DNA from: Candidatus Uhrbacteria bacterium
GTDB lineage: Bacteria > Patescibacteriota > Patescibacteriia > UBA9934 > GWF2-40-263
Direction of reading: 5' to 3'
Assembly (NCBI GenBank): GCA_016844925.1
Contig: JAERTI010000055.1
Coordinates: 65,459 to 129,458, forward strand
Length of the DNA: 64,000 nt
Shown: piece after piece, positions 9,423 through 12,665 of the stretch
How the letters are laid out: each line of letters begins with the position of its first letter
Numbering within the stretch: the stretch's first letter is position 1
The notes under the pieces: generated by a model
Seen by the model: only the letters and a program-made list of their open reading frames with translations
Database searches by the model: none
Told to the model about the DNA's origin: nothing
Made by a program: the position numbers and the translations under genes

Positions 9423-9900
9423 TTTGCGGTAAATAATTTCGTCGTACGAGGGCTGTTCTGTCCAAAAGGACGATAGCGACCGTGAACGATCCCCCGCTCA
9501 ACGAACCCCATCTTGCCTTCGGGCGTTCCTAGAGGTGTTGAGCCCCCTGCCGAGCGAGATGACCTATGTACTGACGCTTCGGGACATGCTCGGCCCCACC
9601 GTCTGACGGTATTCGAGGTGCCGCAAGGCACGAAGCAGATTGTCAGACCCCCACGGCCAACGTAAAGGAGCAAAGACGAAAGTCGCTTCATGTCTTGTTG
9701 GCCCCACTGCTCGACGACACAACAGGTGCCCCACGGGCGATCCTAAATCTGTCGAGCCACCGCCTGACGATACTTCACCTGTGCCCCGCCACGAGTGGTC
9801 TCTTGTCAGACTCCTGATAGACGAGCATCTCCATGTCCTCAAACGGCGTGCTTGCTGTCTCTCCCCACCCCTTAAGGGTGGTTTTTTCTTTGATCTAATC
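9421..9900 (+). repeat. Structured noncoding module M1 (copy 1 of 3)
   Basis: It contains the CCCCC-GCTCAAC...GTTGAGC-CCCCC hairpin and the GTGTTGAGCCCCCTGCCGAGCGAGATGAC box. It has UUCG/GCAA tetraloops and the terminal hairpin ccccaccccttaagggtgg followed by tttttt. It is homologous to 11590..11965 and 12484..12665. Confidence 0.55.
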
Positions 9901-9901
9901 A

Positions 9902-9930
9902 TTGACAACCCAACCTAAACCCCCTAATCT
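9902..9930 (+). promoter_or_regulatory. Sigma70-like promoter (TTGACA, 17-nt spacer, TAATCT) for the 540-aa gene
   Basis: It has a perfect -35 and is followed by RBS aaaggag. Confidence 0.45.
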
Positions 9931-9966
9931 CCCCTGTCGCCCAAAACGCGACTAAAGGAGCCGCTG

Positions 9967-11589
9967 ATGTCCCGGTTCATCGGAATCAGGCATCGCGTGA
10001 AGAAGACCGCAGATGGTGAGGCAAGGCCGACCCTCCTGCATGTCTTGGAAACGGGAAAGACGCACGAACTGGAAGATGACAACGCTGAGCTGGACTGGGT
10101 CCGGGGAACCTTCCCCACGGCCTGGCGCCCCATCAAGGAAGAAGACGACCTGAGCGAGATCAACCCCCGCCACCTCAAGTGGCGGACGGTTCGCAAGACG
10201 GATGATGTCTCACAGGTGGATCCGGCGCGCTTGCGCACGGTCAAGGGCAAGCGGCAGATCGCCATCAAGATGCCCAGTGCCTTCGACGGCCTGCGCAAGG
10301 GCGATGTGGTCGCCATGAGCTTGGGAGGATCGGGAGACCGACTCGCCTTCGCTCTGTCCAAGACGGCTGAAGAGGTCGGCAGCACTGTGCTTCGCCTTCC
10401 CCCCGCTACGCTCAAGGAGCGCCGCGGAGAGGAAGAGAAAGCGCATGACGCCCAGCTGCTCGCCAAGCTCGCACAAGACGAACCCAACCTCTTCCACGAG
10501 GTCACGACCGTCAGCCGCAGCATCATCATGGTGCGCGAGCGGCAGTCCAGGCGCATGGATGCCATGAAGGCCCGCATCGCCTGCGAGCAGCGTCTGCGCC
10601 AGACCTTCATCGGTCAGGTGTTCTGCACCGACGACGCGTTCGACGAGCTCGACATCGAGGCCAAGTTCACGGCCATGAAGGCCAGCGACCGGATCCTCGG
10701 CGTCCTCGTGGACGAAGAGAAGGCTCGGATCAAGGAACTGGACCGCGCGGTGAAGTCCACCGGTGTGTGGAAGCACATCCTGGACGACGTCACGGGCGTG
10801 GGCCCAGCAATTGCCGGCCGACTCATCAGTGCCATCGGCAACATCGAACGATTCATGATCGAGCCGGACCAGCGTGTCATGGACGAGCTGTACCAGCGAA
10901 GCGTACGACTTGAGCGCGAAGGTGACTTCGAGGGGCTCAAGAAGTACGTCAAGCAGGGAGACAGCAACTTCCAGACCCTGCAGCGCGCCGCCTCATGGTG
11001 CGCGAAGAACAACCGCCCCGTTCAGTCCGCCCTGCTGGAAGAAGCCGTCGAGTGCCACCGCCAGCGCTCACAACTCCGACACAGGGCCCGCAAGAAGGGT
11101 CAGGCCAAGCTCAAGGCGTTCTGCGGTGTCCACCTGGTGGTCAGCGCTGAGTGCACGAGCTGCCTGCGCCGGTTCTCCGAGAGTGCCATGCAAATCAAGG
11201 GAACGGACAAGTTCCGCACCGACTGCCCCGCCTGCGGTGGTGCCATCCACTGGAAGGGCTTGCTCCCGCGCAACACCAAGGGGCGCGTGAGTAACTGGCA
11301 TCCGGATGCTCGTCAGGCGCTGTACCTGCTCTCCAAGGAGCAGTTTGTGCGCCAGAAGGACCGCACCCGTTGGGGCAAGATGGTCCTGGAATACAAGCGC
11401 AAGCTGCGCGTGAAGCATCCCGAACCGGTTCAGGCCGGCGAAAGGTTGCTCTGGACCAATGGCATGGTGCACTCCACTGCCTGCTGGAAGACGGCCACCA
11501 AGTTCACCGAGTGGCTCTACGACCAATGGTCCGATCTGGCCCGCAAGCAAAAGCTCGCCGCGGCCCGAGCACGAGCCCGCCGCCGATAG
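9967..11589 (+). CDS. IS110-family-like (DEDD/HhH Tnp_20) recombinase homolog with a C-terminal zinc-ribbon insert; high-GC
   Basis: The HhH motif VTGVGPAIAGRLISAIGNIERF matches the IS110 IPGIGxxTAAxLLAEIGDIxRF. RRMDAMKARIA resembles the IS110 KTDxxDAxxIA segment, and KLKAFCGVHL resembles QLAAYAGLxP. The first catalytic Asp appears to be replaced (MSLGGSG). Cys clusters CTSC...CPACGG are present. Confidence 0.45.
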   Translation: MSRFIGIRHRVKKTADGEARPTLLHVLETGKTHELEDDNAELDWVRGTFPTAWRPIKEEDDLSEINPRHLKWRTVRKTDDVSQVDPARLRTVKGKRQIAIKMPSAFDGLRKGDVVAMSLGGSGDRLAFALSKTAEEVGSTVLRLPPATLKERRGEEEKAHDAQLLAKLAQDEPNLFHEVTTVSRSIIMVRERQSRRMDAMKARIACEQRLRQTFIGQVFCTDDAFDELDIEAKFTAMKASDRILGVLVDEEKARIKELDRAVKSTGVWKHILDDVTGVGPAIAGRLISAIGNIERFMIEPDQRVMDELYQRSVRLEREGDFEGLKKYVKQGDSNFQTLQRAASWCAKNNRPVQSALLEEAVECHRQRSQLRHRARKKGQAKLKAFCGVHLVVSAECTSCLRRFSESAMQIKGTDKFRTDCPACGGAIHWKGLLPRNTKGRVSNWHPDARQALYLLSKEQFVRQKDRTRWGKMVLEYKRKLRVKHPEPVQAGERLLWTNGMVHSTACWKTATKFTEWLYDQWSDLARKQKLAAARARARRR

Positions 11590-11965
11590 GTGGCTACCCA
11601 GTCGATCGAAAGGACCGCTGACGAACGTCGTCGTCCCTCGTGATCAACCCCCTACTGGACGCGCATGGACGCGCCCTAGTGGCGATGTGGAGGCATGTCC
11701 AGTCTCGTCGGACGAGGGCGCTCGCGTTTTAACGAACGTGCCTTTGTTTGTCCGACCCCCCACCGCTCGACGATGTTCGTCCTGTAAACAACGACGTAGC
11801 GCGTGTTGAGCCCCCTGCTGATCGAGATCACGATTGACGAACATCGTGGGCGAAATGATCATCCCACTGAGTGACGAAATGGCTGATGTGCTTACGCCGC
11901 CCAGCTTGTCACTCCCCACCCTCACAAGGGTGGTTTTTTCTTTACAGGTCGGAAGCTTAGCTTCC
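11590..11965 (+). repeat. Structured noncoding module M2 (copy 2 of 3)
   Basis: It shares GTGTTGAGCCCCCTGCTGATCGAGATCAC and the ctccccaccctcacaagggtgg-tttttt terminator. CCCCCACCGCTCGAC...GTTGAGCCCCC retains pairing through a G-U change. The palindrome gtcggaagc-tta-gcttccgac precedes the promoter. Confidence 0.55.
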
Positions 11966-11972
11966 GACAGGG

Positions 11973-12001
11973 TTGACAAGAACCCCCTTGAGACCTAGTC
12001 T
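11973..12001 (+). promoter_or_regulatory. Sigma70-like promoter (TTGACA, N17, TAGTCT) with CCCCCTTGAG spacer motif
   Basis: The spacer motif is shared with the promoter at 16854. Confidence 0.45.
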
Positions 12002-12027
12002 CGACAGTCATGCAAAAGGAGGAGCGC

Positions 12028-12483
12028 ATGATTTCCTTGCTCCTTGTCCTGTCCATCGCCCACGCCCAGGCGCCTGCGTGCTCGCAGACTGTCTACCTGG
12101 ATGTGCTGCGCGACGGCGAGATGACGTTCCAGTCCAGCCTCGCCGTCGACCGATGGCAACCCACACTCCCATCCATGAACCCCCATGGCCTGACCGTCGG
12201 TCTGGATGAGGGGGATCTGTGCGTAGTGTTCATCGGTGCCCCGGCGGCACCGGACCGTGTGGTGATCATGAGGGAGAACGGGAAGCCGCACGCGCTCCCA
12301 CCGGGGATGCCGGCCTTCACCCTGCGTGGTTCCGTCGAAGCACTGGAGGCCATCGAGCTGCACCTGGCAGACCGAGAGATCCTGACCCCCTTCGACCGCG
12401 GTAGTGTCCGCTACGTGGACATCCAGTACTCCGTGCTGGAAACTCGCCGCTACACCCCCTTCGTGGCTGTCGCCACCCCCTAG
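12028..12483 (+). CDS. High-GC ORFan secreted protein (signal peptide MISLLLVLSIAHAQA)
   Basis: RBS aaaggagg lies 7 nt upstream of the second ATG. GC3 is very high. Confidence 0.5.
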   Translation: MISLLLVLSIAHAQAPACSQTVYLDVLRDGEMTFQSSLAVDRWQPTLPSMNPHGLTVGLDEGDLCVVFIGAPAAPDRVVIMRENGKPHALPPGMPAFTLRGSVEALEAIELHLADREILTPFDRGSVRYVDIQYSVLETRRYTPFVAVATP

Positions 12484-12665
12484 CCGAGCGGACCGGTTCG
12501 TGGAAACGTAATGGCCTCTGCTCAGCCCCCTGCTCAACGCGGCGCCATGTGCCCAAAGCGAGAAGAAGAATGTTGAGCCCCCTGAGTGACGAGGCGTGAC
12601 GTGTTAAAACGTGCGTTCACATGTTGCTCCCCACCCTCACAAGGGTGGTTTTCTTTTTCCCCATC
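12484..12665 (+). repeat. Structured noncoding module M3 (copy 3 of 3, shortened)
   Basis: It has CCCCCTGCTCAAC...GTTGAGCCCCC and the tgctccccaccctcacaagggtgg-ttttc terminator. It matches M2 except for an internal deletion of about 55 nt. Confidence 0.5.

Follow-up and report, generated by a model that had tools for sequence, protein, structure and literature searches.

Which system do the recurring hairpins on the chromosome of a Candidatus Uhrbacteria bacterium belong to, and what might they do there? The question arises from a preliminary description of 64,000 nt of contig JAERTI010000055.1 (assembly GCA_016844925.1, positions 65,459 to 129,458; hereafter the window), which singled out three copies of a hairpin motif with complementary 7-nt arms and read them as a functional RNA structure. 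We find that these copies belong to a set of 17 tandem hairpin units, each with two 9-nt spacers, which lie on both sides of a gene for a TIGR-associated protein, TasR. The region is very probably a chromosomal stem-loop TIGR-Tas locus of a bacterium of the candidate phyla radiation (CPR; Patescibacteria, Uhrbacteria-like), in which guide-like arrays flank a nuclease-dead TasR. It is a real, further member of the known CPR family that combines stem-loop TIGR arrays with dead TasR; the system was described in 2025-2026 and is not new.

TIGR arrays, and with them a second type, the stem-loop arrays, were described by Faure et al. (2025; PMC12045711). The dual-repeat type carries UG as box D and CCA as box C, with a G-C pair between them, and the CPR clade of TasR has an inactive RuvC domain, sizeable insertions within its Nop domain, and stem arrays (PMC12045711). 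In a preprint of September 2026 (Xu et al.; 10.64898/2026.09.09.750476), the same laboratory catalogued 2,559 stem-loop arrays and reported the structures of PateTasR and CsTasR.

Tandem units with two spacers

A scripted parse recovers 17 tandem hairpin units at 9441-12629, all on the + strand and grouped into three sub-arrays of eight, six, and three. Eight units are located upstream and six plus three downstream of tasR, here also called ORF540 (open reading frame of 540 codons; 9967-11589, +). The hairpin region lies between gyrB (7302-9389) and secE/nusG (from 12750), and its GC content is ~62%, compared to ~50% in the flanks. Sub-array 1 (9441-9863) has a period of 53-55 nt and consists of U0 (9441-9490), U1 (9496-9543), U2 (9549-9594), U3 (9601-9648), U4 (9655-9703), U5 (9709-9757), U6 (9762-9811), and U7 (9816-9863); RNA folding of 9425-9895 likewise yields a row of alike hairpins with a period of ~54 nt (z = -3.7). 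Sub-array 2 (11601-11914) contains D1 (11601-11648), D2 (11654-11703), D3 (11707-11756), D4 (11765-11811), D5 (11817-11863), and D6 (11869-11914). Sub-array 3 (12483-12629) comprises E1 (12483-12526), the 5' arm of which starts at the last base of the stop codon of a small gene, ORF151, followed by E2 (12532-12578) and E3 (12584-12629). Each of the three sub-arrays was also matched by a covariance model of the units (R1; see below). Intrinsic terminators on the + strand, each a hairpin with a T-run, close sub-array 1 (9865-9887), sub-array 2 (11916-11939), and sub-array 3 (12631-12654), and T-runs follow only the last hairpin of each array. Given that the G-U pairs and the + strand terminators fix the strand, we take + to be the transcribed one.

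All units follow one layout. In the 5' half, a 7-nt arm ending in C is followed by GA (C-GA being box C), the 9-nt spacer A, and UG (box D'). In the 3' half, a loop of 4-10 nt or a short hairpin precedes CGN (box C'), the 9-nt spacer B, a U, and the 3' arm, which starts with the G of the box D UG; a C-rich linker then leads to the next unit. These linkers (e.g. 9544-9548 and 9649-9654) read CCCCU, CCCCAC, CCACU, or similar. Two 9-nt spacers can be parsed in 17/17 units (34 spacers), with UG after spacer A in 14/17 and CGN before spacer B in 14/17; UG before the 3' arm is present in 17/17, though it served as a selection criterion. The closing stems comprise 16 distinct stem pairs among the 17 units, with 109 Watson-Crick, 4 G-U, and 6 mismatched positions. 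Box C (A-C-G-A) and box D (U-G-U) bracket each spacer, and because near-identical anchor pairs occur at the closing stem and at the small inner hairpin, the unit has a pseudo-twofold symmetry.

The three copies noticed first are U1, D4, and E2, which have a common closing stem and unrelated spacers. U1 reads GCUCAAC-GA-ACCCCAUCU-UG-CCUUCGGG-CGU-UCCUAGAGG-U-GUUGAGC, D4 reads GCUCGAC-GA-UGUUCGUCC-UG-UAAACAA-CGA-CGUAGCGCG-U-GUUGAGC, and E2 reads GCUCAAC-GC-GGCGCCAUG-UG-CCCAAAG-CGA-GAAGAAGAA-U-GUUGAGC. The window contains GTTGAGCCCCC at 9537, 11805, and 12572 and nowhere else. As the preliminary description had it, the arms GCTCAAC and GTTGAGC are complementary (9496-9543 and 12532-12578), and GCTCGAC of the second copy pairs with GTTGAGC through one G-U wobble (11765-11811). 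All three modules exist; however, they are three of 17 hairpin units with a common grammar and not a family of three. The loop between the arms measures 33-34 nt rather than the proposed 35-50 nt. A box reported as conserved in two copies is present (29 nt, 9535-9563 and 11803-11831, 90% identity), but corresponds to the junction of two neighboring units: it runs from the U of box D through the 3' arm, the CCCCU linker, the following 5' arm, and GA to the sixth nucleotide of the spacer after that. Similarly, the CCCCC runs noted outside the arms are C-runs of the inter-unit linkers (CCCCC, CCCCU, CCCCAC, and similar). The terminator-like hairpin assigned to each module, CCCACCC-N-GGGTGG plus T-run, does occur three times (9864-9881, 11915-11933, and 12630-12648; chance expectation, none), but it closes the three sub-arrays rather than the three motif copies, with six further units between U1 and its terminator, two after D4, and one after E2.

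To place these units in a wider context, we compared related loci. A single scan of GTDB genomes yielded 79 of them, every one from a CPR metagenome-assembled genome, and the comparison set comprised 82 loci (683 kb). In this set, a strict unit grammar matched 599 times on the strand of the tas gene and 9 times on the opposite strand. The matches cluster directly upstream and downstream of tas, and same-strand tandem units stand beside the gene at 68/82 loci, so that further copies, for which the preliminary description had proposed to search, are abundant both in the window and beyond it. Positional conservation was read from 81 units of equal length at positions that had played no part in their selection. 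An A precedes box C in 69% of the outer and 69% of the inner motifs, the final A of box C is found in 75% (outer) and 63% (inner), and a U follows box D in 69% and 74% of the two motifs. ACGA-N9-UGU is therefore symmetric at the outer and inner positions, while the spacer columns are near-uniform in base composition. The same grammar is present in the units of two loci that will be relevant for the protein, L008 (Ca. Staskawiczbacteria) and L079 (Ca. Buchananbacteria).

Covariation was tested on a gapless alignment of 48 units from >30 loci with 500 shuffles. Base-pairing is possible in 96.9% of the alignment cells, a value inflated for the outer stem by the choice of units on stem pairing, compared to 31-45% in slid controls. 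Double-change cells number 146 against 39 in shuffles, and the observed value was reached by 0/500 shuffles. The inner 3-bp helix, which had no role in selection, is 95% paired and displays compensatory changes. The covariance model R1, built from this alignment, has 11 matches in the window, all on the + strand and all within the arrays, and 7/11 are outside of the training set. In sub-array 1, the matches start at 9493, 9547, 9598, 9706, and 9813. U1, a training-set unit, scores 37.3 bits, whereas D4 (27.6 bits) and E2 (25.8 bits) were not used for training. The claim of a functional, noncoding, structured RNA on the + strand with pairing kept through sequence change is thus borne out, by many copies and by covariation far above chance. 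The initial reading is, however, only partly supported: its core inference holds, but it was incomplete and missed the three tandem arrays, the dual spacers, the box C/D anchors, and tasR.

An Rfam search, also proposed at the outset, produced no match to any curated RNA family at the gathering score in the whole window, and in E-value mode only sub-threshold matches at 9390-12750. One of these is a weak match to the archaeal box C/D sRNA sR23 at 12561-12601 (+), which extends across the E2/E3 junction and scores 19 bits (E = 0.12) where the gathering score is 45. It fits the box C/D-like character of the units, not membership in the family. Several small spurious ORFs are laid over the hairpins on both strands (9386-9918), and at one related locus, L003, a called gene of 192 aa (2457-3035, -) is located wholly within an array of >25 units. 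A possible promoter of array 1, TTGACC at 9406-9411, overlaps the terminator hairpin of gyrB (9397-9416).

TasR and its RuvC site

What protein would such units serve? ORF540 consists of an expanded RuvC-like N-terminal domain that appears inactivated, a coiled coil, and a Nop domain with two insertions, one of ~80 aa and one a zinc ribbon. Pfam gave no match at threshold for ORF540, with weak hits to HHH_5 and Zn_ribbon only. Its best NCBIfam match is NF052498 (TIGR_Tas_endo, 'TIGR-Tas system RNA-guided endonuclease'; E = 2.1e-28, 99.8 bits, with a curated cut-off of 100). The sole PDB sequence match is TIGR-TasR, 9MTY, with E = 0.003 for the single sequence and 4.4e-16 for a 28-member family profile. 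Alignment of the family by hhalign to TaTasR, the sequence of which was taken from the supplement of the paper, gives a probability of 99% (E = 8.6e-18). The AlphaFold model of ORF540 (predicted local distance difference test, pLDDT, 87.8) likewise has 9MTY as its top Foldseek match (E = 1.6e-6, target-normalised TM-score 0.60).

All 468 homologues of ORF540 are from CPR/Patescibacteria. Among these, the 547-aa TasR of L008 is 41% identical (E = 1e-123), and both its length and its residues at catalytic positions 1 and 2 (R8 and V126) agree with what is reported for CsTasR. ORF540 is also homologous to the TasR of L079 (Ca. Buchananbacteria RIFCSPHIGHO2_02_FULL_56_16, scaffold_15087), a locus that has been cited by name to exemplify a TasR whose RuvC is inactivated (Faure et al., 2025; PMC12045711). 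In the accessible part of the supplementary tables of that study, neither the accession tags of three homologues nor the locus L079 has a match.

Judging from these alignments, three of the four RuvC catalytic positions are replaced in ORF540 (R8, S118, and K158), because R8 and S118 align to R8 and V126 of the L008 protein, i.e. to catalytic positions 1 and 2, and K158 aligns to D87 of TaTasR; D90 is retained as D161. The S118 column is never acidic among 28 aligned family members. R8 and S118 are ~110 aa apart; the TaTasR residues D11 and E43 are separated by 32 aa. Residues ~297-376, following the helix-hairpin-helix motif, are without TaTasR counterpart in the hhalign comparison and constitute the ~80-aa insertion. 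The zinc ribbon (CxxC...CxxC, residues ~389-425, window 11131-11241; modelled with pLDDT <50) is inserted between the conserved FCGVH and LPRN; it is missing from the closest homologues, and two distant members (P0022 and P0026) carry different zinc ribbons at this site. The gene itself is, from its substitution pattern, under purifying selection, since differences from a 95%-identical ortholog (L001) are distributed 15/11/52 over the three codon positions. A promoter-like site, TTGACA-N17-TAATCT, was noted by eye upstream of tasR (9902-9930, +) and falls under the scan threshold.

The fold of TasR is also related to that of the IS110 bridge recombinases (IS621, 8WT6, 8WT9), which share the RuvC-like domain, the coiled coil, and an RNA-binding domain, and which use a stem-loop guide RNA with split guides in internal loops. 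The locus could accordingly be read as an IS110-family insertion sequence whose hairpins are bridge RNA, seekRNA, or target repeats. Some homologues of ORF540 indeed carry IS110-type Pfam domains (PF01548/PF02371), the NCBIfam model transpos_IS110 hits ORF540 with E = 5e-9, the IS621 and ISCro4 recombinases come next after 9MTY in the structural search, and structured noncoding RNA lies on the flanks of the gene. Yet this IS110 hit reaches only 35.7 bits against a cut-off of 140, and in the PDB the family profile picks up TasR, with IS110 recombinases absent from its hits at E <= 1. While IS110 elements are mobile and possess an active DEDD site as well as a serine nucleophile, the DEDD positions of ORF540 are R8, S118, K158, and D161, and the serine is not conserved, the family consensus being VANW at a tentative alignment. 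One bridge RNA provides two binding loops, for target and donor, whereas the window contains 17 autonomous units in three arrays. Finally, there is a single copy in the window, and its chromosomal position is fixed: gene order from gyrB to nusG is kept across relatives with 54-62% TasR identity. We therefore consider an insertion sequence very improbable. Our own first guess, an IS110 transposase with a bridge RNA derived from the GVGPAIAGRLISAIGNIERF motif, was ruled out by NCBIfam, PDB, catalytic residues, and synteny.

Guide function and its alternatives

Among characterized systems, a stem-loop TIGR-Tas locus with dead TasR has its prototype in CsTasR of Ca. Staskawiczbacteria. Both have a CPR host and arrays on both sides of tas, and in both a TasR of ~540 aa has R at the first catalytic position, a residue that is not acidic at the second, a RuvC domain that is expanded, and a Nop domain with an ~80-aa insertion. 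The units, too, are alike: the palindromic stem is variable, there are two spacers with a pairing length of 9 nt, box D reads UG, and a hairpin lies between the spacers. In contrast to CsTasR, closing stems in the window are short (7 bp), inner loops are shorter (4-10 nt, compared to a 5-bp inner stem), linkers are CCCCU/CCCCAC with no CUU at the stem base, TasR carries the additional zinc ribbon at ~389-425, and a third sub-array lies beyond the inserted ORF151. The dual-repeat TaTasR (9MTY) is more distant. It shares with the window locus a homologous core of Nop domain and coiled coil, and in both the guides are tandem and carry two 9-nt spacers, box D is UG, the box C cytosine pairs with the box D guanine, and a terminator closes each array. 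However, TaTasR is a protein of 331 aa without the RuvC and Nop insertions, its RuvC domain has an active DEDD site (D11, E43, D87, and D90) and cuts DNA, its units are 36 nt long with conserved edge and loop repeats instead of variable stems, and its box C is CCA rather than CGA.

The biochemistry of these relatives suggests how the locus might work. PateTasR and CsTasR have no cleavage activity, and CsTasR binds 18 bp of double-stranded DNA and supports RNA-guided repression of transcription in E. coli (Xu et al.; 10.64898/2026.09.09.750476). At the CsTasR locus, the array is transcribed and processed to single Tas-bound units, and processing takes place at CUU at the base of the stem, a motif that is frequent, albeit not universal (10.64898/2026.09.09.750476). 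By analogy with CsTasR, PateTasR, and TaTasR, transcription of each array in the window would stop at the terminator of that array, cleavage within the C-rich linkers would yield units of ~50 nt, and a TasR dimer would hold one unit through its two box C/D anchors. The DNA target would then measure 18 bp, with spacers A and B pairing to neighboring stretches of 9 nt, one on each strand. Given the dead RuvC site, the complex would be expected to bind this DNA without cutting it, and hence to block transcription or other processes there. For ORF540 itself, binding of 18 bp of double-stranded DNA without cleavage, and repression, are suggested by its 41% identity to the CsTasR-like protein.

Each testable defining feature of stem-loop TIGR-Tas was found at the locus, with the exception of the CUU motif. 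This exception is one of several points that weigh against our assignment: CTT occurs within ~8 nt of the stem base in 0/17 units. CUU is visible in L079, while linkers in L003 are UCCC or CUCC, and we take its absence to be a lineage difference in an accessory feature. Second, the NF052498 score falls 0.2 bits short of the curated cut-off. Third, that R8 and S118 correspond to catalytic positions 1 and 2 is read from the L008 alignment together with the statement in the preprint, and not from the structure of ORF540. Fourth, the selection of units on stem pairing raises the pairing percentage of the outer stem, but leaves pair-type diversity and the inner helix unaffected. Fifth, when the 64-kb window was searched for targets of tandem spacers, allowing either geometry and gaps of -1 to +3, none with <=2 mismatches emerged. 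At <=3 mismatches there were 12 matches, all with 3 mismatches, compared to ~7 expected by chance according to a rough hand estimate made without control search. At the scale of public collections, exact matches to 18-mer targets are expected by chance (10.64898/2026.09.09.750476). Within the locus, spacer A of U4 (AAAGGAGCA, 9662-9670) resembles the ribosome-binding site of tasR (AAAGGAGCC, 9954-9962), and spacer B of the same unit partly matches the start-codon region of tasR in the same sense. We dismissed this likeness, as it is not significant given the number of comparisons.

The box C/D-like anatomy of the units allows for another function, namely guidance of RNA modification, e.g. 2'-O-methylation of rRNA, instead of DNA binding. 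The Nop domain of Tas proteins is homologous to Nop5, and the box C/D ribonucleoproteins of archaea and eukaryotes (Nop5, fibrillarin, L7Ae) similarly contain a Nop-domain dimer, an inactive RuvC-like N-terminal domain, and an RNA of pseudo-symmetric build whose two guides are held by C/D and C'/D' boxes. The CPR clade with dead RuvC has been speculated to represent a step towards small nucleolar ribonucleoproteins (Faure et al., 2025; PMC12045711). The weak sR23 match points in the same direction, and a conserved chromosomal position suggests a host function. On the other hand, that match is far under the gathering score, Nop56/58 is a very weak structural match (rank 27, E = 2.8), and the units are tandemly arrayed and lack the RUGAUGA/CUGA k-turn consensus; by homology, their guides would pair with DNA. 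The closest characterized relative, CsTasR, binds 18 bp of double-stranded DNA and represses transcription. The spacers are informative as well. In the related loci, 589/611 spacer A sequences are distinct, and sharing between loci is essentially confined to the same species. Because the spacers are almost all lineage-specific, conserved targets of the rRNA type are argued against. We thus give little credence to a modification guide.

Least probable of all is a reading without any guide role, in which the hairpins would be coding sequence or else passive repeats such as REP- or MITE-like palindromes, stacked terminators, or attenuators: despite the ORFs called over arrays here and in L003 and the GC-rich hairpins in intergenic or UTR (untranslated region) positions, stems covary while sequences differ, spacers are fixed at 9 nt between symmetric box motifs, the units are strongly strand-biased and always beside a tas gene, whole units are gained and lost between strains, and a T-run follows only the last hairpin of each array.

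Neighborhood and strain differences

If the arrays and TasR form a TIGR-Tas locus, is this locus a resident of the chromosome or a recent arrival? The order gyrB-array-tasR-secE-nusG (window 7302-13521) is kept in the relatives whose TasR is only 54-62% identical; the loci compared were L003-L006, L010, L011, L066, and L079. In two much more distant loci (L066 and L079), gyrB also adjoins the tasR locus. This has the appearance of a chromosomal locus of long standing and not of a recent island. GC content at third codon positions is nonetheless ~81% for tasR and ORF151, compared to 59% for gyrB.

ORF151 (12028-12483, +), located between sub-arrays 2 and 3, encodes a small protein with a signal-peptide-like N-terminus (MISLLLVLSIAHAQA...) that has no match in Pfam or NCBIfam. 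Among the loci fetched, those of the same species, L001 and L002, are the only ones to have it (92% amino-acid identity). Its substitutions relative to L001 are distributed 7/4/26 by codon position, which indicates a real coding gene. A promoter-like sequence, TTGACA-N17-TAGTCT (11973-12001), precedes ORF151 and resembles the site upstream of tasR. Just upstream of it lies a perfect 9-bp palindrome, GTCGGAAGC-tta-GCTTCCGAC (11948-11968), which is identical in L001 and could be an operator or a hairpin.

The strain comparison, of window 9441-12629 with L001 at 3209-3892, 5634-5840, and 6411-6507, shows changes at the level of both units and spacers, while tasR is 95% identical. L001 has five extra upstream units and is without D4-D6, and its array 2 ends with the spacers of E3. 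Spacer A differs at 6/9 positions in U3 and at 4/9 positions in U7, with the remainder of each unit nearly unchanged. Overall, 17/117 positions of spacer A and 5/117 of spacer B differ, and 52/541 third codon positions of tasR.

These data allow for a broader, tentative proposal: in the Uhrbacteria-like clade, the dead-TasR locus might be an old possession of the host, passed on vertically and regulating host genes or resident elements, and not mobile cargo, with the strain pair hinting at turnover of spacers. We regard this as possible, if rather doubtful. With regard to detection, TIGR stem-loop units are without conserved repeats, absent from Rfam, and sometimes covered by spurious ORFs from gene callers, and the present case indicates that a reading of raw sequence for structure alone can pick up such units. 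What the locus adds to the family is modest, i.e. long-term synteny on the gyrB side, a lineage with C-rich linkers and no CUU, and a pair of strains with array changes at the unit and spacer level, and the current picture of TIGR-Tas is unchanged by it. Should the proposal of an old host locus with spacer turnover be true, the replacement of single spacers, together with the gain, loss, and movement of whole units, would bear on how TIGR arrays acquire their spacers.

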